A DNA stretch of 64,000 nucleotides from Christiangramia sp. (lineage in GTDB: Bacteria > Bacteroidota > Bacteroidia > Flavobacteriales > Flavobacteriaceae), in assembly GCF_029937855.1 (NCBI RefSeq), contig NZ_JAPYPC010000005.1:54616-118615 (forward strand), read 5' to 3'. The position numbers were made by a program, and so were the translations under genes. The notes beneath the pieces are model-generated. The model made no database searches and was not told the DNA's origin. It saw only the letters and a program-made list of their open reading frames with translations. This document shows positions 586 through 55,684 of this stretch, one piece after another; within the stretch, counting starts at the first letter, position 1; each line of letters begins with the position of its first letter.

Positions 586-1461
586 ATGAGCAAAAAGAAT
601 TATGCCGGGATACCCGATAAATACGCTCGTATAGACGAAGCAAAAGTGGTATTGATTCCTGTTCCCTACGATGGTACCAGTACCTGGCAAAAAGGCGCCG
701 ATAAAGGGCCTGATGCATTTTTAAACGCTTCAGAAAATATGGAGCTGTTTGATATCGAAACAAGAACAGAGGTGTATAAAAAAGGTATTTACCTGGCACC
801 TCCCGTTACTGAAGACACTTCTCCTGAAAAAATGGTAGAAGCAGTTTATAAAACGACCAAAAACTATATTAAACAAGACAAGTTTGTAACCTTGTTTGGA
901 GGAGAGCATTCTATTTCTATTGGAAGCATCAGGGCCTTTAATGAATCTTTTGAAGATCTAACAGTGGTGCAAATTGATGCCCATGCCGATCTAAGACCAG
1001 AGTATGAAGGTTCTAAATGTAATCATGCCTGTGCAGTTCATGAAGCCAGTAATACTGCCAACCTTATCCAGGTAGGAATTCGCTCCATGGATATTTCAGA
1101 AATGGATCATATGGATGAAAATCAGGTATATTTTGCTCATGACCTTTATGAAGACTGGCAGGATGATGCCATTGGCCAAATGACGCCAAACGTGTTTATA
1201 ACAATAGACCTGGATGCTTTTGACCCCAGCATCATGCCTTCTACGGGAACCCCGGAACCAGGAGGTTTATTCTGGTACGAAACCCTGGAATTTCTGAAGA
1301 TGATGTTCAAAAAGAAAAATGTTGTAGGCTTCGATATCGTAGAACTTTGCCCAAACGAAAATGAGAAATCTTCAGATTTCCTGGCGGCAAAACTCTATTA
1401 TAAGATGTTGAGCTACAAATTTAAATATCAAAATTACAACGAAGAAGACGAAGATGAGTAA
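586..1461 (+). CDS. speB: Agmatinase (ureohydrolase family)
   Basis: Mn-binding motifs GGEHS, DAHAD and DLDAFDPS; TPEPGG; adjacent to speA. Confidence 0.95.
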   Translation: MSKKNYAGIPDKYARIDEAKVVLIPVPYDGTSTWQKGADKGPDAFLNASENMELFDIETRTEVYKKGIYLAPPVTEDTSPEKMVEAVYKTTKNYIKQDKFVTLFGGEHSISIGSIRAFNESFEDLTVVQIDAHADLRPEYEGSKCNHACAVHEASNTANLIQVGIRSMDISEMDHMDENQVYFAHDLYEDWQDDAIGQMTPNVFITIDLDAFDPSIMPSTGTPEPGGLFWYETLEFLKMMFKKKNVVGFDIVELCPNENEKSSDFLAAKLYYKMLSYKFKYQNYNEEDEDE

Positions 1462-2425
1462 AGGACAGATATCTCAATTCATTGAGAAATATTATTTACA
1501 TTTTAATGCCGCAGCTCTCGTAGATGCAGCTAAAGATTACGAAAAGCAACTGGAAGGCGGTTCAAAAATGCTGGTTTCTTTAGCCGGTGCTATGAGTACT
1601 GCTGAAATAGGGAAGATCTTTGCAGAGATGATACGTCAGGATAAGGTTCATATTGTTTCCTGTACCGGTGCAAACCTGGAAGAAGATGTAATGAACCTTG
1701 TAGCACATTCGCATTATAAAAGGGTTCCAAACTATCGTGACCTTACTCCACAGGAGGAATGGGATCTTTTGGAAAAAGGACTCAATCGTGTAACCGACAC
1801 CTGTATTCCCGAAGAAGAAGCTTTCAGAAGGATACAGGAGCATATTTTCAAGATTTGGAAAGATGCTGAAGAAAAAGGAGAACGTTATTTCCCGCATGAA
1901 TTCCTTCATAAACTGCTTTTAAGCGGAGTGATGGAAGAGCATTATGAAATAGATCTTAAAGATTCATGGATGTATGCCGCTGCAGAAAAGAACCTGCCCA
2001 TGGTAGTTCCGGGTTGGGAAGACTCTACGCTTGGAAATATTTTCGCCTCTTACGTTTTAAAAGGTGAATTAAAAGCCAGCACGATGAAATCTGGTATCGA
2101 ATATATGACCTTCCTTGCCGACTGGTATACAGACAATTCTGAAAACGGGATTGGTTTCTTCCAGATTGGCGGCGGTATTGCAGGTGATTTCCCAATTTGC
2201 GTAGTTCCTATGTTATACCAGGATATGGAAAGAACAGACACTCCTTTCTGGAGCTATTTCTGCCAGATCTCAGATTCTACGACTAGTTACGGTTCATATT
2301 CCGGAGCGGTCCCAAATGAAAAGATAACCTGGGGAAAATTAGATATTAACACTCCAAAACATATCATTGAAAGTGATGCAACCATTGTTGCCCCCCTGGT
2401 TTTTGCGTATTTACTGGATATGTAA
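1454..2425 (+). CDS. Deoxyhypusine synthase-like protein (probable homospermidine/aminobutyl-transfer enzyme)
   Basis: Motifs SLAGAMSTAE, TGANLEED, GGGIAGDF and SYSGAVPNEKITWGK (catalytic Lys position kept). Overlaps the speB stop. Confidence 0.9.
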   Translation: MSKGQISQFIEKYYLHFNAAALVDAAKDYEKQLEGGSKMLVSLAGAMSTAEIGKIFAEMIRQDKVHIVSCTGANLEEDVMNLVAHSHYKRVPNYRDLTPQEEWDLLEKGLNRVTDTCIPEEEAFRRIQEHIFKIWKDAEEKGERYFPHEFLHKLLLSGVMEEHYEIDLKDSWMYAAAEKNLPMVVPGWEDSTLGNIFASYVLKGELKASTMKSGIEYMTFLADWYTDNSENGIGFFQIGGGIAGDFPICVVPMLYQDMERTDTPFWSYFCQISDSTTSYGSYSGAVPNEKITWGKLDINTPKHIIESDATIVAPLVFAYLLDM

Positions 2426-4707: not shown

Positions 4708-6180
4708 TTAAACTTCTGATCTTATACTTTTGAAGAACACAAAACCAAAACCAGAAAAAAGCATTAAATGGAATATTAAAAGTCCAAAATCGTTCAGCTT
4801 AAATGCACTATAAATCGCAAACCCAAAATAGATAAAGAGAAGACCTTCAATTATCACATTTTTAGAGAAACGGTTTTTTAAATAGCTATTCCCTTTCCAG
4901 GTATCTTTTATGGAGTTAATATTAAATTTGGGAGTCCTGATGAACTCTGAGCGCTTCCCAAAATGACCTTCCAGAACTGCCAGTGTATTATGGACGGAGA
5001 AACCCATCGCAATAGAAAAAAAGGTAATAAACATCCCCACAAACTTAAAAAAGCTCCTTATACTTTTGCCGTGAATCCGGGCATAGGCCGTATAGTAGCA
5101 TGCAAAAAAGATCAGAGTGCTCATGGCAAAACCGGCTATTACATTAAAATACCAGTCAAAAGCTGGGTTGTTATGTTTAATATATAAAACAGGAACGCTA
5201 AGCACAGCAAGTAATAATACTATTAAAAACATACTGGAATTGAGCAGATGAAAAAAACCATGAAATTTGGTACTAAACGAAACCGATCTATCTCTAAGAA
5301 GTTTTCCGTAATTCTTTTTGAAATTCTCTGCCGCTCCTTTATTCCACCTAAACTGCTGACTCCTGGCCGCGCTGATCACCACAGGTAATTCAGCCGGGGT
5401 TTCCACATTTTCTAAATATTTGAACTCCCAGTTTTTCAACTGTGCCCGATAACTAAGGTCCAGGTCTTCTGTCAACGTATCGCCGCTCCAGTTCCCGGCA
5501 TCAAGTATACATTCTTTCCGCCAGATCCCTGCAGTTCCGTTGAAATTAATAAAATTTCGACCGAAATTTCGACCGGTCTGTTCGAGAATAAAGTGAAAAT
5601 CCAGTGCAAAAGCCTGAATCCTGGTAAGCAAAGAATAATCCCTGTTTAAATGTCCCCAACGGGTTTGTACCACCCCAATTTTTTTATTTTTAAAATAGGG
5701 TAGCGTTTCCATCAACCAGTTTCTACCCGGCACAAAATCTGAATCAAAAACTGCGATAAATTCACCTTTTGCAATTTTCAATCCTTCTTTTAAGGCACCG
5801 GCTTTAAATCCGGTTCGCTTTTCCCTTCTTATATGCTGAATATCGAGTCCGGAACCTTGAAGTTCCTTAATAATTTCAGAAGTCTTTTGAATGGAATGAT
5901 CTGTAGAGTCATCCAGTACCTGGATTTCCAATTTATCTTTTGGGTACCTGATCTTTCCTATGTTTTTCAGCAATCTTTCCACTACATAATATTCATTATA
6001 AAGTGGAAGCTGAATAGTCACCGCAGGCAATTCTTCCGTAGAAAAATCAAACTTTTCAGCATCATCTGTGGTTTTGGTAGCTTTTAGGTAATTGATGAGT
6101 AAGTGAAGCTGGGACAGGCTGTAAATAAATATAACAAGTAAGGCAAGGGTGTAAATTATGATTACCGCTAAATCTATCAT
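4708..6180 (-). CDS. Cellulose-synthase-like processive GT2 (CslA/CesA-like)
   Basis: D,D,D,QxxRW signature: VLDDSTD, FKAGAL, VFDSD, TEDLDLS, QQFRWNKG. One N-terminal and several C-terminal TM helices. Confidence 0.9.
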   Translation of the reverse strand: MIDLAVIIIYTLALLVIFIYSLSQLHLLINYLKATKTTDDAEKFDFSTEELPAVTIQLPLYNEYYVVERLLKNIGKIRYPKDKLEIQVLDDSTDHSIQKTSEIIKELQGSGLDIQHIRREKRTGFKAGALKEGLKIAKGEFIAVFDSDFVPGRNWLMETLPYFKNKKIGVVQTRWGHLNRDYSLLTRIQAFALDFHFILEQTGRNFGRNFINFNGTAGIWRKECILDAGNWSGDTLTEDLDLSYRAQLKNWEFKYLENVETPAELPVVISAARSQQFRWNKGAAENFKKNYGKLLRDRSVSFSTKFHGFFHLLNSSMFLIVLLLAVLSVPVLYIKHNNPAFDWYFNVIAGFAMSTLIFFACYYTAYARIHGKSIRSFFKFVGMFITFFSIAMGFSVHNTLAVLEGHFGKRSEFIRTPKFNINSIKDTWKGNSYLKNRFSKNVIIEGLLFIYFGFAIYSAFKLNDFGLLIFHLMLFSGFGFVFFKSIRSEV

Positions 6181-6866
6181 TTAAAACTATATTTAAAAAT
6201 CCAACCAAGAATCTTCACGCCTGCAAAGATAGCACCTTTGATTGTTCCTGAAACTTTTGATACGCCAATCCTGTTTTTATAATGCACAGGAATCTCAACA
6301 TAGCTTAGGTTTTGTCGTAAAGCCTTCAATTGCATTTCAACCGTCCAGCCATAAGTTTTATCTTCCATCTCCAGCTGCAGTAATTTTTTGTATTTAATTG
6401 CTCTAAAAGGGCCGAGATCTGTAAACCTGGAATTAAATAATAACTTCATTAAGCTGGTGGCCAATTTATTCCCGAAGATCTGAGGAAAAGTCATCGAACC
6501 TTTCTCCCTCCATTTTTTTACCCTCGCACCCACTACAAAATCTTTATTTTCTTCTAAAATAGGCTGAATGATTTTATCCAATTCTTCAGGATGATCTGAA
6601 TAATCCCCATCAAGAAATACGATAATATCAGGTTTCTTGTTTTGTTTTGAAATATAGTCCAGACCTTTTAAACAGGCATAACCATAGCCTTTTCGAGATT
6701 CCGAAAGTACCGTGGCACCTGCATTTTCAGCATTGATCTCGGTTTTATCAGTAGAATTATTGCTTACTACGATAACCTCATCCACAAAATCGGGGATTTT
6801 TTTAATTACATGAGTAATTGATTCTGCTTCATTAAAAGCAGGGATAATAACCTTGATAAGAGGCAT
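6177..6866 (-). CDS. GT2 family glycosyltransferase (DPM1/polyprenol-phosphate transferase-like)
   Basis: Motifs VIIPAFNE, GYGYAC, FLDGD and FTDLGPFRAI. Probable start MPLIKV at 6866; the ORF track starts at 6881. Confidence 0.9.
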   Translation of the reverse strand: MPLIKVIIPAFNEAESITHVIKKIPDFVDEVIVVSNNSTDKTEINAENAGATVLSESRKGYGYACLKGLDYISKQNKKPDIIVFLDGDYSDHPEELDKIIQPILEENKDFVVGARVKKWREKGSMTFPQIFGNKLATSLMKLLFNSRFTDLGPFRAIKYKKLLQLEMEDKTYGWTVEMQLKALRQNLSYVEIPVHYKNRIGVSKVSGTIKGAIFAGVKILGWIFKYSFK

Positions 6867-46438: not shown

Positions 46439-46921
46439 ATGAAAGACTTGAAAGACCTGTTCGAACATCAATTAAAAGACCTTTTTAGTGCTGAAAGTCA
46501 GTTGATCAAAGCTTTACCAAAAATGGTGGAGAATGCTAATGACGAGAAACTAAAAGAAGCTTTTGAAAGCCACCTGGAAGAGACCAGGGAGCATAAGAGC
46601 AGATTAGAGGTTATATGTAAAGAACTTAACATTAGCCCGAAAGGAGAAACTTGTAAAGCAATGAAAGGTCTTATTGAAGAAGCTGAAGAATTTTTACAGG
46701 AAGACGCTTCAGAAGATGTTCGCGATGCCGGCCTTATTGCAGATGCACAGCGTGTGGAACACTATGAAATTTCCGGTTACGGTACGCTGGTACGCTATGC
46801 AAAAGAACTGGGGCATGAAGATATCGCCAAAAAATTACAGGAAACCCTGGATGAAGAGTATGATGCCGATGAAAAACTGAACAAACTGGCAGAATCAAGG
46901 CTGAACCAGGAAGCTAAGTAG
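46439..46921 (+). CDS. Ferritin-like YciE/YciF (DUF892) protein
   Basis: LKDLFSAESQL, HLEET, CKAMKGLI and AQRVEHYEISGYG motifs. Confidence 0.92.
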   Translation: MKDLKDLFEHQLKDLFSAESQLIKALPKMVENANDEKLKEAFESHLEETREHKSRLEVICKELNISPKGETCKAMKGLIEEAEEFLQEDASEDVRDAGLIADAQRVEHYEISGYGTLVRYAKELGHEDIAKKLQETLDEEYDADEKLNKLAESRLNQEAK

Positions 46922-47336: not shown

Positions 47337-47802
47337 TCAAAAATCTTATACTGTCGAAGAGGCTTTACAAAAGCTGATGCAATTTTGTGCCTACCAGGAC
47401 AGATCTCAAAAAGAAGTGGAAGACAAGTTGGATGCGATGCGCATGATCCCACAGGCAAAGGAAAAAATTATTAGTTGCCTTATGCAGGAGAACTTTCTGA
47501 ATGAAGAACGCTTTGCCAGATCGTTTGTGCGGGGGAAATTCAGGATAAAAAAATGGGGCAGGATAAAAATAAAACAGGAACTTAAGAAAAAAGAAATATC
47601 CACACCTATAATTAAGTTGGGACTTGCAGAAATAAAAGAAACAGATTACAGAAAAACGCTTTATGATCTGGCAGAAAAGAAAGAGGAAAAGATAAATGAG
47701 TCCAATTCATTTAAAAAGAAAACAAAACTTGCAGATCATTTACTGCGGAAAGGCTATGAAGCTAATCTCGTATTTGAATGTGTAAACGAGATTATTGACT
47801 AA
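47326..47802 (+). CDS. recX: Regulatory protein RecX
   Basis: FCAYQDRS, FLNEERFA, KWGRIKI and LLRKGYE motifs. Confidence 0.93.
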   Translation: MKHDQKSYTVEEALQKLMQFCAYQDRSQKEVEDKLDAMRMIPQAKEKIISCLMQENFLNEERFARSFVRGKFRIKKWGRIKIKQELKKKEISTPIIKLGLAEIKETDYRKTLYDLAEKKEEKINESNSFKKKTKLADHLLRKGYEANLVFECVNEIID

Positions 47803-48673
47803 TAGCATTCTTTTTATGAGTGCGTTTTATGGCCTGCTCATTCTTATAATCTATCCATTTTTGTCCTCTTAGCTTACGCATATAATTATCAAAATGTCTC
47901 ATAAAAACAAGGTTATAAACTGCTTTTGAAAAATTTGTCAGCGTTCTGGGAGTGGCCCTTAAGCTCATGGAAAATCCTGCAGTGAGATACGTCATGTGGT
48001 GCCAGTAACCTTCAGGCATATACAGGGTTTCACCATGGTTTAATTCTGTAATATATCCCTTCGCTTTTTTTAGCACAGGAAATTTGTTGAAATTCGGGTT
48101 GTTGAAATCAATATCTTCCCGGGCAATGAGTGCATGAGGAACTTTATATAAATATTTACTTTCTGAAGGAGGAAATAAGATACATTGCTTTTTTCCGTGG
48201 AAATGAAAATGAAGGATATTCGCATAATCGATGTCGTAATGCATAAAAACCTTGGAATTTTCACCTCCAAAGAACAACATAGGCAATTGTTTTAAAAACC
48301 GAAGGCCCACATCGGGGAACTTAAAATCTTTCTGAAGACTTGGCACTTCCTTCATTAAATGATAAAGGAAAATTCGATAGCTGGTAGGCCCTGACTTTAG
48401 CAGTGCGATATATTCGCTCATCTTCATATTTGCATGCGGCTCGTTGAACTTGTATTTTGAAGAAATTGGACGATCGTCATATAGTGGTACTGTTTTTTCA
48501 CCGGCTACTTCCTCGATATAATCAAGACTCCATTTATTATAAGCCGGCCAGTCATCTATAAGCCTTTCTATAACCACAGGCTTTTGTGGACGCACATACT
48601 TCTCCAAAAAATCTGCTTTTGAAATTCGCTTTACTCGTGGTATTTGTTCAAGTTTCATATTATCGTTCTTCAT
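47792..48673 (-). CDS. JmjC/cupin_8 Fe(II)/2-oxoglutarate dioxygenase-like protein (copy 2)
   Basis: HYD...WH facial triad (MHYDID; EGYWHHM); GKKQCILFPP; ATGA overlap with the upstream paralog. Confidence 0.88.
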   Translation of the reverse strand: MKNDNMKLEQIPRVKRISKADFLEKYVRPQKPVVIERLIDDWPAYNKWSLDYIEEVAGEKTVPLYDDRPISSKYKFNEPHANMKMSEYIALLKSGPTSYRIFLYHLMKEVPSLQKDFKFPDVGLRFLKQLPMLFFGGENSKVFMHYDIDYANILHFHFHGKKQCILFPPSESKYLYKVPHALIAREDIDFNNPNFNKFPVLKKAKGYITELNHGETLYMPEGYWHHMTYLTAGFSMSLRATPRTLTNFSKAVYNLVFMRHFDNYMRKLRGQKWIDYKNEQAIKRTHKKNAISQ

Positions 48674-49542
48674 TCTTCAATACCTGCCTTTCTATGGGTT
48701 CTTTTTATTGCTAGGTTGTTTTTATAATCTATCCACTTTTGACCTTTTAACTTACGCATAAAATTATCATAATTTCGGGTAAAAAGCAGCTTATTCATAA
48801 CTTCTACTATTTTTCGGGGAGATTTGGGCAACGAACGCAACGTTAAAGATAAACAGGCGGTTTCATATTTTATAAAATGCCACCACTCACTGGGGATATA
48901 CAAAGCCTCACCATGCCCCAGTACAGTTTCATAGCCTTTCGCTATTGCCAGCGCGGGATATTTTTCAAAATCCGGCTTATCCATATTTATAATTTCCATA
49001 CTTACTATGGAATATGGTACTTTATATAGAAAATCTGTTTGATCTGGAGGATACAGAATAATTCTTTTCTTCCCTACAAAATTAAAATGGAAATTATTGG
49101 CCAGATCCATATCGTAATGCATCACTACTTTTGAACCTTCACCGCCCACAAACAGTACCGGTAGCTTTTTAAAAAATTTGATTCCTAAATCTGGGTACTG
49201 AAAATCCTTTATTAATTCTGGACAATTCTGAAGTAGGTTGAAAAAGAACATTCTCAGGTCTGTAGGACCTTTTTTCAGGATCTCGATATAATCCTTAAAC
49301 GGTAGCTTCATCGCCGGGCCATGTGAATTTTGCCTTCCTTTGGCCGGTTTCCCATCATACAGAGGAACCACCACATCTCCTGCTTTTTCCCTAAAATACT
49401 CAAAATCCCACTTTTTATAGGCAGGCCAGTTTTCAGCAAGGTTCTCAATTACTACCGGTTTCTTCGGAACAAAATATTCCCTTAAAAAATCTTCTTTAGA
49501 AAGATTCTTTCTTCTGGGAATATTTTGAAGATCTAGTTCCAA
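48670..49542 (-). CDS. JmjC/cupin_8 Fe(II)/2-oxoglutarate dioxygenase-like protein (copy 1)
   Basis: HYD...WH facial triad (MHYDMD; SEWWHF); GKKRIILYPP; TTG start 15 nt after the bioB stop. Confidence 0.88.
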   Translation of the reverse strand: MELDLQNIPRRKNLSKEDFLREYFVPKKPVVIENLAENWPAYKKWDFEYFREKAGDVVVPLYDGKPAKGRQNSHGPAMKLPFKDYIEILKKGPTDLRMFFFNLLQNCPELIKDFQYPDLGIKFFKKLPVLFVGGEGSKVVMHYDMDLANNFHFNFVGKKRIILYPPDQTDFLYKVPYSIVSMEIINMDKPDFEKYPALAIAKGYETVLGHGEALYIPSEWWHFIKYETACLSLTLRSLPKSPRKIVEVMNKLLFTRNYDNFMRKLKGQKWIDYKNNLAIKRTHRKAGIEE

Positions 49543-49557
49543 AATTGATAAATTAAG

Positions 49558-50649
49558 CTAGGCTTTTGCTTTGGTCTTTTGCTGAGCATCCAGATTTCTC
49601 TCAATTTTATGACCTGGTCGTGACCATTTAGGTTTCTCTCCCTTGCTTTGATATTGTGAATTTTCAGCATCAATACTTTCTGGCTGAGATTTTTTCTCAA
49701 AAGCTTTCTGTGGATTTAATCCCAGCATTTTAAACATTTCCATATCCTCATTTACATCGGGATTTGGAGTTGTCAAAAGTTTATCTCCTGCAAAAATAGA
49801 ATTAGCCCCGGCAAAGAAACACATTGCCTGGCCTTCCCTGCTCATTTGGGTTCTTCCTGCAGAAAGTCTAACCTGCGTTTCCGGCATTACGATTCTTGTA
49901 GTGGCTACCATACGTATCATCTCCCAGATTGGTACCGGCGCCTGCTCCTCCAGCGGAGTTCCCTCTACCGGCACCAAAGCATTGATCGGCACAGATTCCG
50001 GCTGCGGATTCAAAGTAGAAAGCGCCACCAGCATTCCTGCACGGTCGGCTTCACTTTCTCCCATTCCTATAATTCCCCCACTACAAACAGTCACATTTGT
50101 TTTTCTCACATTCCCTATAGTATCCAGTCTATCCTGATAACCACGAGTTGAAATTACTTCTTTATAATATTCTTCTGAAGAATCCAGGTTATGGTTATAA
50201 GCATACAGTCCTGCTTCCGCCAAACGTTCAGCCTGATTTTCAGTAAGCATTCCCAGCGTGCAACAAACTTCCATATCCAACTTATTGATGGTTCTTACCA
50301 TTTCCAGCACATTATCAAATTCTTCACCATCTTTTACATTTCTCCAGGCAGCACCCATACAAACCCGGGAACTTCCAGAAGCCTTTGCGCGCAAAGCCTG
50401 TGCTTTAACTTGATTTACGCTCATAAGATCGTTCCCTTCAAGATCTGTATGATAACGAGCTGCTTGTGGGCAATAGCCACAATCTTCCGGGCAACCTCCC
50501 GTTTTTATGGAAAGCAAAGTGGATACCTGAACGGTATTTGGGTCGTGATGTTCGCGGTGAATGGTAGCTGCTTCATAAAGCAATTCCATAAAAGGCTTAT
50601 TATATATTTCTAGGATTTCTTCTTTTGTCCAGTCGTGTTTTGTTGCCAT
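49558..50649 (-). CDS. bioB: Biotin synthase
   Basis: SIKTGGCPEDCGYCPQ radical SAM motif; YNHNLD, CSGGIIGMGE, ESVPIN and RLSAGR motifs. Probable start MATKHDW. Confidence 0.98.
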   Translation of the reverse strand: MATKHDWTKEEILEIYNKPFMELLYEAATIHREHHDPNTVQVSTLLSIKTGGCPEDCGYCPQAARYHTDLEGNDLMSVNQVKAQALRAKASGSSRVCMGAAWRNVKDGEEFDNVLEMVRTINKLDMEVCCTLGMLTENQAERLAEAGLYAYNHNLDSSEEYYKEVISTRGYQDRLDTIGNVRKTNVTVCSGGIIGMGESEADRAGMLVALSTLNPQPESVPINALVPVEGTPLEEQAPVPIWEMIRMVATTRIVMPETQVRLSAGRTQMSREGQAMCFFAGANSIFAGDKLLTTPNPDVNEDMEMFKMLGLNPQKAFEKKSQPESIDAENSQYQSKGEKPKWSRPGHKIERNLDAQQKTKAKA

Positions 50650-50666
50650 GTAATTCAATTTGTATT

Positions 50667-50674
50667 CAAAAATA
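50667..50674 (-). promoter_or_regulatory. -7 promoter element upstream of bioB
   Basis: TATTTTTG on the minus strand matches TAnnTTTG; no clear -33 element. Confidence 0.5.
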
Positions 50675-50738
50675 ACGAAAACTAAGTTTTATAAGGGATA
50701 GCTTCTAAAAGATTTATAAACGGGAAAGCTAACAATTT

Positions 50739-51893
50739 CTATTTTCTTCCTACGAGAATTGAAACGGCATTTCCCCCAAATCCTACAGAATTTACCAAAA
50801 TATTTTGCAGTTTATCGGGTTCATGTTTAAATTCTGAAAAAGGAACCGGTAAAAACTGCTGCTTTTGAAGCATTAAAATGGCCATTTCAAGGCTCAGTAT
50901 TCCGGAAGCTGCAAAGCTATGTCCTGTTTTCCATTTATTGCTGGTAATTGCCGGGAATTTATCCTGAAAAACAGCTTTTACCGCATTTACTTCCGCCAGA
51001 TCGCCACCAATAGTTCCAGGCGCATGCATCACAATGGCATCTACTTCTTTTTTATTCATATTCCCCATCGCCATTTTCATGGAATCCTGAAGGCATTTCC
51101 CATTCCTGGAAAGGGACGCCCCATGTTTCAATTTTTCATTGGCATAGCCAATTCCCTTAATGATTGCTAATGGATTCGAATGGTCTTTGGAAGTTAACCC
51201 CACCATTCCAGCTCCTTCGCTTAAGATCATAGAGTTTTTAGATTTTTCCATATCCAGGGAACGGCAGGGAAAATCGATATTTTCAGATGCATAGATTTTC
51301 ATCGCATTCATCTGGGCAAGAGTAAATCCTGTAAGAGGAGCTTCACTTCCTCCCGCCATAAAACTTTTTGCCATCCCGCTTTTAATCCAGGCAATAGCAT
51401 TGAGAATGGCATGCATTCCTGTGGAACAGGTGACGCTATGGGAGAATTCAGGACCATTTAGCTGAAGGTCCTGCGCTACCCAGGAAGATATATTTCCTAA
51501 AGTTGTGGAAGGAGAACTATAGGTAGAAGACTTTCCGGTTTCTAGGAATTCTTCATGATATTTTTCAAATAAACCTGTCGCACCCCTGCTGCTGCCTATA
51601 TTTATTCCGGTATCGTGTCCGTTAATTGCAGTAGTATCGCAAGCTTTTCTAGCTGCAAGAATTGCATATAAAACGGAATTATCCAGATAGCGATATTTAG
51701 TGTTTTTTTCCTTTAAGCTGGAAACATCCTTCTTAATTTCTTCAGATAAATTCCCTACCCAGGAAATCTGAGCTCCAACCTTCTTAAGCTCAAACAAATG
51801 ATCGTCGGAAATATAATTTTTCCAGATCTCTTCTGAATTTTTTCCTAATGGGGAAATTGTGCCTATAGAAGTTATAGAAACCGTATTTTTCAA
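50739..51893 (-). CDS. Stand-alone FabF-like beta-ketoacyl synthase
   Basis: Catalytic Cys (SVTCSTG), His (VMHAPGT) and His (KWKTGHS); C-terminal NSVGFGGN; GGSEAP. Confidence 0.88.
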   Translation of the reverse strand: MKNTVSITSIGTISPLGKNSEEIWKNYISDDHLFELKKVGAQISWVGNLSEEIKKDVSSLKEKNTKYRYLDNSVLYAILAARKACDTTAINGHDTGINIGSSRGATGLFEKYHEEFLETGKSSTYSSPSTTLGNISSWVAQDLQLNGPEFSHSVTCSTGMHAILNAIAWIKSGMAKSFMAGGSEAPLTGFTLAQMNAMKIYASENIDFPCRSLDMEKSKNSMILSEGAGMVGLTSKDHSNPLAIIKGIGYANEKLKHGASLSRNGKCLQDSMKMAMGNMNKKEVDAIVMHAPGTIGGDLAEVNAVKAVFQDKFPAITSNKWKTGHSFAASGILSLEMAILMLQKQQFLPVPFSEFKHEPDKLQNILVNSVGFGGNAVSILVGRK

Positions 51894-51907
51894 AAGCTGA
51901 TTTTTGG

Positions 51908-51915
51908 CAAAAATA
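51908..51915 (-). promoter_or_regulatory. -7 promoter element upstream of the ketosynthase gene
   Basis: TATTTTTG on the minus strand, 15 nt upstream of the TTG start. Confidence 0.5.
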
Positions 51916-51948
51916 AGGCTGAATTACCGACTGGCTAAATTTCAGAAC

Positions 51949-52548
51949 CTAAATTCTGCTTTTTTCAGGTTTTAAATAAAGGTTTTTAGTAGATAACATC
52001 TTTTTATCTCCGGAAGCTACGCTACTAATTTCAGCTTTTACCTTTTCTGAAAGTAGTTCAAACAAAGGCTGGTCAAGATTTTCTATTAACGGAAATAGCG
52101 GTTCCAGAGAGCTATCCCATTCCTTGTAAAGGTCCAGGGTATCGTCTGGTTTTACCACTTTTCGGTCCACTCCTTCATCTTCAGGAACAAAAGATTCAGA
52201 TAGATTTAAATAACCATAATCATCGGTAAGTTCTTCCCCAATAGGAATATCCCTTACAGCAACTTCAAAATTATAGCTTGTAGAAAGACAATTAGATCTG
52301 AAACTATGATTGATATATTTAGCGATATCCCAACATAGAATATGTTCACCTTTATTATTTCGAAAACTGTATTTCTCCAATAATTCTTTGGCGAGAGGCT
52401 TGAAATTTGCTGGCTCCTGCGGTGAAAAAACCTGATCTAACTCATCCTGCACCCAGGTAATAGTCCCTTTTGGGATTAATTTCGTGGCCACGACCCCGAA
52501 ACCCTTTTCATCACTTATCCATTTTAATTTCGTATCAGGATGCATCAT
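51949..52548 (-). CDS. SET domain-containing protein (putative lysine methyltransferase)
   Basis: KGFGVVA..IPKG, YINHS..NC and GEELTDDY SET motifs. Confidence 0.88.
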   Translation of the reverse strand: MMHPDTKLKWISDEKGFGVVATKLIPKGTITWVQDELDQVFSPQEPANFKPLAKELLEKYSFRNNKGEHILCWDIAKYINHSFRSNCLSTSYNFEVAVRDIPIGEELTDDYGYLNLSESFVPEDEGVDRKVVKPDDTLDLYKEWDSSLEPLFPLIENLDQPLFELLSEKVKAEISSVASGDKKMLSTKNLYLKPEKSRI

Positions 52549-52626
52549 AATTTTTCAGATTTATCTATCTAAATTAGATAAAAATTGAATCCGAAAAATT
52601 AAAATTGTTAGCTGAGACGAATTTTT

Positions 52627-53916
52627 TTAAAAAACCTCAAGCACCTCTTCCATAACCGAATAGAGTTTCTGAAGCTCTTTTTCTGAAATCACATAGGGCG
52701 GGACGATATAAATAGTATTACCTAACGGGCGCAGAAATACGCCATTATCCATAAAAAACCTAAAAAGTTTATTCCGAAGGTTTCCGTAACGTTCCATTTT
52801 CACATTCAATTCAAAAGCTAAAATCACCCCCTTACTCCTCGCGTTTTTAACTTTTGGATGGCTTTCCAGCTTATTGGCAAATTCCAAATTAGCCTCTGTA
52901 ATATTTTTAATATTGCTCTGTATTTTTTCTGAAACAAGTAATTCTACTCCTGCCAGGGCTGCAGCACAGGCCAAAGGATTAGCTGTATAGGTGTGACCGT
53001 GAAATAAACCTTTGGCAATATCATCTGAGTAAAAAGCATCATACACTTTTTGTGAGCACGAAGTTAAGCCCATAGGAAGCAATCCCGCTGTAAGCGCTTT
53101 AGACATACACACCACGTCTGGCTTTTCATCTATATAATCTGAAGCAAAATAGCTGCCTGTCTTCCCGAAACCGGTCATTACTTCATCTGCGACCAGAATA
53201 ATCTCGTTTTTACGGCAAATCTTAAGGATTTCATTTAAACCCTGAGCATCATGGAATTTCATGGCAGCTGCACCCTGAATGAGGGGTTCGTATATAAAAC
53301 CGGCAATAGTCTGTTTTTTAATAAGCTCCTTCAAAAATGAAAGCACCTCCTGGTTATTTTCACCCGTAGGCACCGGAATTCTTTCCACCCGGATAAAATG
53401 ATCCTGAAAAGCGCCATTATAAACAGATAAACCTGAAACCGACATAGCCCCGAAAGTATCGCCATGAAAACCTTCTTCAAAAGCCAACATGACCTTACGA
53501 TCATTCCCCAGGTTATGATGGTATTGCAGCGCCATTTTTATTCCTATCTCTGTAGCTGTGGAACCATTATCGTTGAAAAACAATTTTTGCTGCCCTTGAG
53601 GCAATATTTTAATTAGGGCTTCAGAGAGTTTAACAGCCGGTTCGTGCGTAAATCCGCTAAAAACCACCTGATCCAGCTGTTGCATTTGCGCAGCAACTTT
53701 TTTAGTGAGGTAATCATTACAATGCCCGTAGACAGAGGTATACCAGGAAGAAATTCCATCGATATACTCATTCCCTTTATCATCTGTAAGGATACATCCC
53801 TTTGCTTTTTTAATAGCCAGCATTTCCGGACTTGTTTTATGCTGGGTAAGCGGATGCCACAGGTGTTTTTTATCCCTCTCTCCTAAGCTTTTCTCTTTCA
53901 ATTCTACATCTCGCAT
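52627..53916 (-). CDS. bioA: Adenosylmethionine-8-amino-7-oxononanoate aminotransferase
   Basis: HLWHPLTQH, DGISSW, FHGDTFG, DEVMTGFG, SKALTAG and HGHTYTANP motifs. Confidence 0.97.
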   Translation of the reverse strand: MRDVELKEKSLGERDKKHLWHPLTQHKTSPEMLAIKKAKGCILTDDKGNEYIDGISSWYTSVYGHCNDYLTKKVAAQMQQLDQVVFSGFTHEPAVKLSEALIKILPQGQQKLFFNDNGSTATEIGIKMALQYHHNLGNDRKVMLAFEEGFHGDTFGAMSVSGLSVYNGAFQDHFIRVERIPVPTGENNQEVLSFLKELIKKQTIAGFIYEPLIQGAAAMKFHDAQGLNEILKICRKNEIILVADEVMTGFGKTGSYFASDYIDEKPDVVCMSKALTAGLLPMGLTSCSQKVYDAFYSDDIAKGLFHGHTYTANPLACAAALAGVELLVSEKIQSNIKNITEANLEFANKLESHPKVKNARSKGVILAFELNVKMERYGNLRNKLFRFFMDNGVFLRPLGNTIYIVPPYVISEKELQKLYSVMEEVLEVF

Positions 53917-54527
53917 AATCTCTTTCTAAATTTTTCAGCGTATTCACTTATCACCATCTCATCAAAATATGGTTCTTCTTCAATACGGCCAATAACCTTT
54001 ATTTCCCCATGAATTTTGATAGCCTCTTCGGTTGTTGGATGTTCAGCACCACTAAAAATAACTCCTATTTTTTCAAACCCTCTATTCTTAAGATTTTCAA
54101 TACTTAATAGAGTATGGTTTATACTTCCTAAATAATGCCTGGAAACAAGGATTACCACATCCTCTTTAGAAATTAAATCGGCAATCTTTTCTTTCTCATT
54201 TAACGGAACGAGTAATCCCCCGGCACCTTCTATTACAAGTTCTCTATCGGTCTCTGGCCGTTTAATTTCTTTTAAATCGATCCTAATTCCATCAATTTCA
54301 GCGGCAGCATGTGGACTCATCGGAGTATGAAGTGCATAAGCATTTTTATGAAAGACGCTTTGATCATTTTTCACCAGCTTCTGAATTTTATGCGTATCAG
54401 AATGATGTAGATCGCCCGCCTGTATCGGCTTCCAGTAATCGGCTTGCATAGCTTCTGTAACAATTGCTGAAACGATTGTTTTTCCTACTTCGGTTCCTAT
54501 TCCGGTAATAAAAAATGTCTTTGGCAT
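53904..54527 (-). CDS. bioD: Dethiobiotin synthase
   Basis: TGIGTEVGKT, WKPIQAG, IEGAGGLLVP and LGSINHT motifs. Confidence 0.97.
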   Translation of the reverse strand: MPKTFFITGIGTEVGKTIVSAIVTEAMQADYWKPIQAGDLHHSDTHKIQKLVKNDQSVFHKNAYALHTPMSPHAAAEIDGIRIDLKEIKRPETDRELVIEGAGGLLVPLNEKEKIADLISKEDVVILVSRHYLGSINHTLLSIENLKNRGFEKIGVIFSGAEHPTTEEAIKIHGEIKVIGRIEEEPYFDEMVISEYAEKFRKRLCEM

Positions 54528-55684
54528 TACTTATTATTTGCCACAAAATTACTCAGGACTTTTAAGACCTCCGAGATTTCCTCGAAAGAATTATAGCTAT
54601 GAATACAAAATCTTAGTCTTTCACTTCCCGGGGGAACGGTAGGAGAAAGAATAGGCTTAACATTAAAGCCTTTATTCTGAAGTTCTTCGGCTGCCAGTTT
54701 TACTTTCGTGTTTCCTGAAATTATACAGGCCTGAATGGCAGAATCGCTTTCTAAAAAAATATCTTTAAGAGCATTTTTATGTTTTTCAGCTTTAAAATGC
54801 ACAATATTCTCCCGAAGCTTGTGTAAAGCTTCCCGATCTGTTTCCAAATAATTATACGCGGCACTAATGGTCGCAATAGAATGTGGTGAAAGCGCCGTGG
54901 TATAAATTAAACTTCTGGAAAAATTGACCAGATAATCTTTTAGCCCCTTGCTACCAAGAATTACTGCTCCATGACCGCCCATTGCTTTTCCGAAAGTGTG
55001 GATTCTGGCAAAAATCCTGTCCTGGATATTTAATTCCTGTGCCAGTCCCTCTCCTTTTTCGCCAATCACTCCCGTGGCATGGGCTTCGTCTAAAATTAAT
55101 TTTGCAGTATAATTCTCAGCAATTTTAATTATTGTTTCAAGATCGGGCGAATCGCCATCCATGGAAAAAACAGATTCGGTGACGATATAAATTTCAGAGG
55201 TTTCACTCCTGGGTGTAAAACGATTTAATTTTCGTTTCAGGTCTTCAAGATCGTTGTGCCGAAATTTATAATTCTTTGCCAGGCTCATCTTCAAACCGTC
55301 CCTTATGGAAGCATGAGAATATTCGTCGTAGAGAATGATATCATTCTTTTGTGCAACTGCTGAAAAAAATCCAATATTAGCATCGTAACCCGAATTAAAT
55401 ACTAGGACAGCTTCAGAATCATGAAAATCGGCAAGCTGATGCTCTAAAATATTAAATAAGGGATGATTTCCGGATAACAACCTGGAGCCGGTAGATCCAT
55501 TTAAAACTTCATATTTTTCCAGTATCTTTCCTGTATTTTTTAATATTATTTTAGAACGTGAAAAACCCAGGTAATCATTAGAAAAAAAATCTACGCCATC
55601 AGAAAATGATAATAATTCTCTAAAAGAATTTTCTTCTTTTCTCCTTTGGAGTCTTTTCTCTAATTTTAAAGGCAGCTTTTTCAT
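54527..55684 (-). CDS. bioF: 8-amino-7-oxononanoate synthase
   Basis: FFSNDYLG, GSTGSRLLSGN, SHASI, SVFSMDGD, DEAHA and TFGKA motifs; first gene of the bioFDA run. Confidence 0.93.
   Translation of the reverse strand: MKKLPLKLEKRLQRRKEENSFRELLSFSDGVDFFSNDYLGFSRSKIILKNTGKILEKYEVLNGSTGSRLLSGNHPLFNILEHQLADFHDSEAVLVFNSGYDANIGFFSAVAQKNDIILYDEYSHASIRDGLKMSLAKNYKFRHNDLEDLKRKLNRFTPRSETSEIYIVTESVFSMDGDSPDLETIIKIAENYTAKLILDEAHATGVIGEKGEGLAQELNIQDRIFARIHTFGKAMGGHGAVILGSKGLKDYLVNFSRSLIYTTALSPHSIATISAAYNYLETDREALHKLRENIVHFKAEKHKNALKDIFLESDSAIQACIISGNTKVKLAAEELQNKGFNVKPILSPTVPPGSERLRFCIHSYNSFEEISEVLKVLSNFVANNK

Follow-up and report, generated by a model that had tools for sequence, protein, structure and literature searches.

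A FabF-like ketosynthase linked to the biotin genes of Flavobacteriaceae as a candidate source of the pimeloyl precursor

Synthesis of the pimeloyl moiety is the variable and still incompletely described part of biotin synthesis. The established routes are BioC/BioH along with BioI/BioW and BioZ, joined since December 2025 by BioE/BioL in Weeksellaceae (PMC12704756, PMC12915131). In the BioZ route, a C5 primer bearing an omega-carboxy group is condensed with malonyl-acyl carrier protein (malonyl-ACP) to 3-oxopimeloyl-ACP, which is finished by the fatty acid synthesis system of type II (FAS II) (PMC7645780, PMC8024396, PMC12625853), and two serines of the enzyme grip the omega-carboxylate of the glutaryl chain (PMC12625853). 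Riemerella is reported to have no bioC, bioH, bioI or bioW (PMC6168606), as are related Flavobacteriales (PMC6168606, PMC12704756), and in Elizabethkingia, a member of Weeksellaceae, bioE adjoins bioF (PMC12704756). The subject here is a stretch of 64,000 nucleotides from Christiangramia sp. (hereafter the window), whose minus strand carries, between positions 55684 and 47792, eight co-directional open reading frames (ORFs) in the order bioF-bioD-bioA-SET-KS-bioB-JmjC-JmjC. This cluster probably encodes an undescribed pimeloyl-thioester supply, and its ketosynthase (KS) is the candidate, because linkage of KS to the biotin genes persists in several gene orders and an invariant arginine is the focus of the changes in its acyl pocket. 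KS has about an even chance of being a dedicated biotin-pathway condensing enzyme of the beta-ketoacyl-ACP synthase (KAS) I/II class, which would provide the pimeloyl thioester of BioF in a BioZ-like manner from glutaryl and malonyl-ACP; that it has some role in pimeloyl supply is somewhat more probable than this specific proposal.

The eight-gene arrangement is strongly non-random, far beyond chance; it is identical in Christiangramia forsetii KT0803 and the gene order recurs in hundreds of Flavobacteriaceae loci. The top homologues of KS come from Christiangramia (formerly Gramella), and the flanks of the KT0803 cluster match those of the window (Mrp antiporter, MgtC, RecX, DUF892 and RNase G genes). 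Synteny was followed in four samples of loci (numbered with the prefix L), anchored on KS (75 loci), on BioB (the best 80), on SET (79) and on distant BioB sequences (80). bioA and bioB are present in 71 of the 75 KS-anchored loci, bioD in 70 and bioF in 67, usually in the order bioF-(c8)-bioD-bioA-KS-bioB; a single JmjC gene stands directly 3' of bioB in 60 of these loci, and SET is found in just 2. From the side of BioB, KS lies within 10 kb in 71 of the best 80 loci and JmjC is found in 62, and four of the nine loci without KS have scant or no upstream sequence (three short contigs, and L116, where bioB starts the contig).

The distant samples extend this linkage beyond the family. Cryomorphaceae and Owenweeksia have a compact bioF-D-A-KS-B cluster, Tenacibaculum has the usual order with JmjC, and Weeksellaceae (Riemerella, Bergeyella) have a solitary bioB. 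Distant Bacteroidota relatives of KS (37-45% identity), reached through a 50%-identity library, remain beside bio genes in differing orders: bioB-F-D-A-KS in L160, KS-bioF with overlapping stop and start codons in L161, compact bioF-D-A-KS-B in L162 (with overlaps), L246 and L247, bioFDA-KS-x-bioB in L076, and KS-bioB alone in L075, L071 and L029. The compact operons of five genes (bioF, D, A, KS, B) hold no second candidate pimelate gene. KS is the sole extra gene that tracks the biotin pathway through these rearrangements.

KS shares 24-26% identity with FabF and FabB. Its AlphaFold (AF2) model, which has a predicted local distance difference test score (pLDDT) of 88.6 and a predicted template modelling score (pTM) of 0.92, finds its top structural matches in the FabF enzymes of E. 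coli and P. aeruginosa (TM 0.89-0.91, 24-25% identity). Its scores fall below the curated cut-offs of both families (146.6 against 493.75 for TIGR03150, fabF; 109.2 against 630 for NF005935, FabB), and because the former lies far under the NCBIfam FabF cut-off, KS is not a housekeeping FabF. An alignment of 75 KS family members with E. coli FabF, in FabF numbering, served for the comparison of active sites and pockets. Cys163, His303, His340, Lys335 and the GFGG loop with its gatekeeper Phe400 are invariant in all 75, and, its catalytic residues and gate being so conserved, KS should be well able to catalyse decarboxylative condensation with malonyl-ACP. At the positions that we take, from the FabF literature, to dock ACP, KS keeps basic residues in part.

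The acyl pocket departs from this conservation in a specific manner. A review of elongating ketosynthases describes I108 and F202 as a back gate near C7-C8 of the bound chain. The Ile108 position is arginine in 75/75 KS sequences, and Leu111 is replaced by Thr, Val134 by Ser, Ile138 by Thr and Gly198 by Thr, again in every sequence; Phe133 is replaced by Ser, Ala or Thr, and Phe202 by Met. The broader family has 418 representatives (clustered at 50% identity) at E <= 1e-30; of the best 150, nearly all carry the motif [ST][SA]R at the Ile108 site, four being fragments or unaligned. In a second ketosynthase, from locus L117, these pocket positions are occupied by Thr, Val, Met and Phe. A guanidinium group at the back gate, ringed by hydroxyls, is what would be expected of a pocket that grips a C5-C7 dicarboxylic acyl chain by its distal carboxylate.

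In the proposed mechanism, a short acyl chain with an omega-carboxylate, most likely glutaryl (C5) as its ACP or coenzyme A (CoA) thioester, would load the active-site cysteine, and its carboxylate would be gripped by the invariant arginine at the Ile108 back gate together with the nearby Ser and Thr residues. Condensation with malonyl-ACP would yield 3-oxopimeloyl-ACP, which the housekeeping FabG, FabZ and FabI could convert to pimeloyl-ACP, as these enzymes do in the BioZ route (PMC7645780, PMC8024396), before BioF takes the product, and the closed, charged back gate would block further elongation. Lysine catabolism, which provides the C5 primer in alpha-proteobacteria, may be its source here too; alternatively, KS itself may make the primer in a first round that starts from malonyl, the step from malonyl to glutaryl being handled likewise. 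Full-text literature searches, incomplete in their coverage, returned no description of a FabF-like KS, a JmjC protein or a SET protein in biotin synthesis.

Several points weigh against this proposal. The pocket comparison depends on an alignment to FabF at 25% identity, and residues 111, 133, 134, 138 and 198 are pocket residues on our assumption. The cluster encodes no source of a glutaryl thioester, KAS I/II enzymes normally take acyl-ACP and not acyl-CoA primers, and a malonyl-primed round would pass through 3-oxoglutaryl-ACP, a free beta-keto acid that is expected on chemical grounds to be unstable. Some bio operons of Flavobacteriales have no KS within 9 kb (L248, L263, L294, L296, L298), and two distant relatives of KS that bear the arginine (L163, L164) are not linked to bio genes. 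Finally, genes of the BioC/BioH type or bioE may lie elsewhere in the genome, and BioE homologues have been reported in some Flavobacteriaceae (PMC12915131).

Three of these loci merit a description of their own. The genes at L163:1852-3015 and L164:250-1449, which keep the arginine as GSARS and GSARC, each adjoin a small 4Fe-4S ferredoxin gene and may represent a neighbouring subfamily with a different function. A gene on the minus strand of L296 (9271-10329), 1.5 kb downstream of the KS-less bioB-F-D-A operon, resembles a family-III (CaiB-like) CoA-transferase in its N-terminal sequence; it recalls the supply of glutaryl-CoA in the BioZ route, and this may be a coincidence.

The strongest of the alternatives, although itself unlikely, is that there is no new route: BioC with an esterase, or BioE, would be encoded elsewhere in the genome, and KS, JmjC and SET would neighbour the bio genes for other reasons, such as a biotin-dependent function in fatty acid or lipid metabolism or the regulation or maintenance of BioB. 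The reported BioE homologues favour it, as do the scope of the gene searches, which covered the window and collected neighbourhoods, the occurrence of SET away from bio genes, and the commonness of inserts (NfeD/flotillin, GT39-like, Coa1-like) that makes adjacency alone weak evidence. Nevertheless, the linkage of KS survives at least four gene orders and reaches down to about 37% identity, including stop/start overlaps with bioF or with bioA/bioB, and the KS pocket is unlike that of a long-chain elongating enzyme. The searches for known routes bear on the same question. Pfam scans of 20 mid-sized ORFs elsewhere in the window and of the flanks brought up neither a class-I methyltransferase nor an alpha/beta hydrolase, a P450, a FabH-like protein or a diiron protein of the ferritin-like type. 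EcBioC had no match in about 2.9 Mb (the window plus the KS-anchored and BioB-anchored loci), and only two class-I methyltransferase motifs, neither adjoining bio genes, were present in a wider set of collected neighbourhoods of 5.1 Mb. The hydrolase inserts of the sampled clusters all carry signal peptides, and no BioH-like esterase lies within the clusters. A BioE-type ferritin-like diiron ORF, defined by two E-x(~28)-E-x-x-H motifs, a position next to bioF and a length of about 200-230 amino acids (as judged from residue L205 and ligand numbers that reach H173), was sought by its ligand motif and was found neither in the window nor in the 2.9 Mb of loci, where the four matches to the diiron regular expression all fall within KS itself; a match in a Chryseobacterium locus (L321), considered as BioE, proved to be MsrA-like. 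Since bioE of Weeksellaceae adjoins bioF, the lack of a diiron ORF in these 2.9 Mb of KS-type neighbourhoods argues against this alternative.

The remaining alternatives assign the chemistry to the JmjC proteins. The two of the window are 49% identical to each other, and their closest solved relatives are JMJD5, FIH, TYW5 and JMJD7. Their residues align to H321, D323, K336, N327 and H400 of JMJD5, and H145, D147, H225, K162 and N152 are kept in at least 98% of 229 distinct JmjC orthologues; they are very probably active 2-oxoglutarate (2OG) oxygenases. Paralogue 1 is confined to the Christiangramia/Gillisia/Salegentibacter/Zunongwangia group, and paralogue 2 is orthologous (62-86% identity) to the lone JmjC placed directly behind bioB in the majority of Flavobacteriaceae (60 of 75 KS-anchored and 62 of 80 BioB-anchored loci). 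Many KS operons lack JmjC (L076, L160, L162, L246, L247), and bioB-JmjC pairs persist without other bio genes in L115, L116, L122 and L150. Because JmjC is dispensable for KS-type operons and travels with bioB, these oxygenases are probably accessory and tied to bioB, not part of the core route. Literature searches found no link between the JmjC family and biotin.

A methyl-ester route built from new parts would give JmjC a central task. An unlinked BioC-like methyltransferase would make malonyl-ACP methyl ester, KS would elongate the ester, and JmjC would replace a BioH-type esterase by hydroxylating the O-methyl group with release of formaldehyde. Demethylation through hydroxylation is described for JmjC-family enzymes (PMC4543633), the clusters have no BioH-like esterase, JmjC is catalytically intact and follows bioB in about 80% of Flavobacteriaceae loci, and the clade that bears SET also has the second JmjC. 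This route is nonetheless quite improbable: the methyltransferase searches described above came back without a candidate in about 2.9 Mb or beside bio genes in 5.1 Mb, many KS operons, the five named above among them, do without JmjC, the invariant arginine and the Ser/Thr pocket are a better match for a carboxylate than for a methyl ester, and JMJD5, FIH, JMJD7 and TYW5 hydroxylate side chains of protein or tRNA and are no O-demethylases. Less likely still is an oxidative route in which JmjC makes the pimeloyl chain from acyl-ACP (by C7-C8 cleavage in the manner of BioI and BioE, or by stepwise omega-oxidation of heptanoyl-ACP) and KS only feeds the chain, for although BioI (P450) and BioE (a diiron enzyme) provide precedents (PMC12704756), the Fe/2OG ligands are intact and JmjC is co-directional with bioB over a 15-nt gap, many bio operons keep KS without JmjC, JmjC stays with isolated bioB genes, and a polar, arginine-containing KS pocket would not accept a plain alkyl chain. 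Cleavage of an acyl chain by JmjC as the core of the route is unlikely because JmjC belongs to the JMJD5/FIH branch of protein hydroxylases.

BioB itself offers a possible substrate for such a hydroxylase. The BioB of the window ends in a conserved C-terminal tail (..GEKPKWSRPGHKIERN.., at the 3' end of bioB, 49558-49700), for which the consensus in Flavobacteriales is ..GE[KN]P[KR]W[ST]RPxHxI[ED][RK]N.., with W, R, P, I and N invariant in 248 sequences. The tail is not found in BioB of E. coli, L075 or L160, every locus with an adjoining JmjC carries it, and it is rich in residue types that the JmjC hydroxylase family modifies. It is also near-universal in Flavobacteriales, Weeksellaceae included, and occurs in many loci that have no JmjC and in loci with no KS or JmjC nearby (L248, L296, L298, L312, L315). 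This leaves the association unspecific, and the link between JmjC and the tail is only suggestive. There is a slim chance that JmjC, with SET in its clade, forms a protein-modification system that acts on the tail GEKPKWSRPGHKIERN, its Arg, His, Asn or Lys residues being hydroxylated or methylated and demethylated, while KS would make a pimeloyl-ACP whose omega-carboxylate is left free. Were this so, the modification would couple the activity or stability of BioB, an oxygen-sensitive and self-sacrificing radical S-adenosylmethionine (SAM) enzyme, to O2, Fe and 2-oxoglutarate, comparable to the action of FIH and prolyl hydroxylases (PHDs) on HIF.

The SET protein aligns to KMT2D through 'YINHSFRSNC' (NHS..N) and 'GEELTDDYGY' (EELTDDY, of the ELxxDY type). 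Its gene lies between bioA and KS in 68 of the 79 SET-anchored loci, all in the Christiangramia/Gillisia/Salegentibacter/Salinimicrobium/Autumnicola group, and outside any bio cluster in the other 11, and most KS-containing clusters have no SET gene. SET was considered as an analogue of BioC and was ruled out, being missing from most KS clusters and having those 11 orthologues outside bio clusters. It is probably not a member of the core route; a biotin role is doubtful, and it may be regarded as a clade-specific passenger or modulator. In one clade it is found together with the second paralogue of JmjC, which invites a writer/eraser reading that is confounded by phylogeny. The 11 stand-alone orthologues are at 53-58% identity, and those of the Aequorivita type stand by carotenoid genes: in L237, L238 and L244 (about 6001-6600), SET is downstream of MerR-, CrtI- and CrtB-like genes and of a putative lycopene-cyclase-like membrane protein.

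An earlier note on this DNA had proposed a new route to the biotin precursor from the same genes. The part that concerns KS has gained support from synteny and from the arginine pocket, whereas the proposal is not supported as stated for the JmjC proteins, missing from many KS operons, or for SET, confined to a clade. The synteny with bioFDAB that the note pointed to likewise holds for KS (71/75 and 71/80 loci) and turns, for JmjC, into an association with bioB and not KS. Its suggestion that the Fe/2OG enzymes oxidise or cleave an acyl chain finds no favour in a family that tracks bioB, is missing from many KS operons and falls in the protein-hydroxylase branch. The descriptive claims of the note were borne out: all eight co-directional ORFs were recovered with matching domains, the Pfam scans of the window and flanks were empty of bioC, bioH/bioG, bioW and bioI, and -7 elements precede KS and bioB as sequence matches.

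The features of the cluster are collected in Table 1. Neighbouring genes overlap at bioF/bioD (the bioD start over the bioF stop), at bioD/bioA and between the two JmjC genes, and the remaining intergenic gaps are 78, 55, 80 and 15 nt, the last separating bioB from the first JmjC gene; this spacing fits one operon or a few. The best NCBIfam match of BioF, TIGR00858, reaches 341.8 bits and lies under its cut-off of 426. A scan for sigma-70 promoters and terminators gave 22 matches against 24.7 in shuffled sequence, i.e., no excess, and the Bacteroidetes -7 motif was the sole informative element of the promoter and terminator scans. PADLOC returned no defence-system match for KS, SET or JmjC. 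The sequence is present in DNA runs from hydrothermal-vent and marine metagenomes, and none of the matches is among RNA runs.

Table 1. Genes and putative promoter elements of the biotin cluster (positions in the window)
Feature	Position	Strand	Length, domain matches and remarks
bioF, 8-amino-7-oxononanoate synthase, first in cluster	54527..55684	-	385 aa; PF00155 (Aminotran_1_2)
bioD, dethiobiotin synthase	53904..54527	-	207 aa; PF13500; TIGR00347, 120.8 bits (cut-off 83.3)
bioA, adenosylmethionine-8-amino-7-oxononanoate transaminase	52627..53916	-	429 aa; TIGR00508, 538.6 bits (cut-off 405)
SET-domain protein, between bioA and KS	51949..52548	-	199 aa; PF00856, 42.9 bits (cut-off 22.4)
Bacteroidetes-type -7 box TATTTTTG	51908..51915	-	22 nt upstream of KS start; sequence match only
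Ketosynthase (KS)	50739..51893	-	384 aa; PF00109, 71.9 bits; PF02801, 67.8 bits
Second -7-like box TATTTTTG	50667..50674	-	16 nt upstream of bioB; sequence match only
bioB, biotin synthase	49558..50658	-	366 aa; TIGR00433, 407.4 bits (cut-off 225)
JmjC/Cupin_8 Fe(II)/2-oxoglutarate oxygenase, paralogue 1	48670..49542	-	290 aa; PF13621, 127.3 bits (cut-off 27.4)
JmjC/Cupin_8 oxygenase, paralogue 2	47792..48673	-	293 aa; PF13621, 120.1 bits (cut-off 27.4)

Other genes intervene in the clusters of related species. A protein of about 127 amino acids is encoded between bioF and bioD in 55 of the 75 KS-anchored loci (e.g., L037:5471-5857) and is not found in the window; another conserved member of flavobacterial bio clusters, it contains two CxxC pairs and matches DUF2007 weakly (23.6 bits, under the cut-off). 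An NfeD-like membrane protein and a flotillin are encoded as a co-directional pair inserted between KS and bioB; 32 loci have this pair (e.g., L006:9288-11300). Two inserts run on the opposite strand: a Coa1-like gene, which separates bioA from KS in 37 loci, and a gene for a GT39-like membrane protein, which separates bioD from bioA in 32. In Aquimarina and relatives (L054:9167-10138 and 5 similar loci), a 323-amino-acid alpha/beta hydrolase with a signal peptide is encoded between KS and bioB; it has a weak match to BioH (E = 0.001) and is probably secreted, hence an unlikely pimeloyl-ACP methyl esterase. The NfeD/flotillin pair, the GT39-like and Coa1-like proteins and the secreted hydrolase were each considered as pathway members and ruled out for lying on the opposite strand, for being membrane-bound or secreted, or for occurring sporadically. 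The window itself has a 160-amino-acid DUF892 ferritin-like gene (46439-46921, plus strand) at a distance of two genes from the cluster, a placement shared with C. forsetii; the double E-x28-E-x-x-H motif is missing from it, and its length falls short of that of a BioE-like protein. An arginase-family gene that overlaps a deoxyhypusine-synthase-like gene (586-2425, plus strand) may form a polyamine/homospermidine pair and is unrelated to the biotin finding.

Flavobacteriaceae, which count among the most abundant heterotrophs of the sea, include the fish pathogens Tenacibaculum and Flavobacterium. If the proposed role of KS is true, it would be a fifth solution to pimeloyl supply and a second, independent recruitment of a ketosynthase class to this task, and calls of vitamin B7 auxotrophy in marine metagenomics that are based on the BioC/BioH module would be corrected. 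The gene would also be a simple means of producing pimelate or biotin with a single gene, as well as a selective target, and a FabF pocket fitted with an arginine 'ruler' would be a clear natural example of an elongating ketosynthase retuned for dicarboxylates.

Compared with known systems, the accessory proteins of the cluster are recognizable members of their families. The SET protein has the domain and the NHS..N and ELxxDY motifs of SET-domain lysine methyltransferases. The JmjC proteins share with JMJD5, FIH, JMJD7 and TYW5 the Cupin_8 domain, an iron triad of the form HxD..H, and the Lys and Asn that bind 2OG; unlike these relatives, they are bacterial, have about 290 amino acids and are fixed downstream of biotin synthase. 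BioE (ferritin-like diiron, Weeksellaceae) and BioI (P450) fill the same gap in pimeloyl supply in organisms without BioC/BioH (Flavobacteriales or Bacillus) and are encoded next to bioF, but they perform oxidative C7-C8 cleavage of long acyl chains, not condensation, and have unrelated folds.

KS itself has the fold, the two Pfam domains, the catalytic tetrad and the gating loop of FabF and FabB. It differs from them in lacking their hydrophobic acyl pocket and its back gate of Ile108 and Phe202 (Gly in FabB), in scoring far under the equivalog cut-offs of both, and in the location of its gene, which occurs in or near bio genes (71/75 loci) and not in a fab cluster. With BioZ, it shares the position of a ketosynthase paralogue inside a biotin operon that has no bioC, bioH, bioW or bioI (bioBFDAZ in alpha-proteobacteria), the chemistry here proposed, and polar residues placed for an omega-carboxylate. 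BioZ, however, is a FabH-type KAS III enzyme with a Cys-His-Asn triad that takes glutaryl-CoA (or glutaryl-ACP), whereas KS has Cys-His-His, Lys335 and the GFGG gate and finds its best matches in sequence and fold in FabF/FabB, not FabH. Recognition of the carboxylate would also differ, with a back-gate arginine in KS in place of the two serines and lid loop of BioZ. KS is best read as a candidate functional counterpart of BioZ that is of the KAS I/II class and not a member of the BioZ family.

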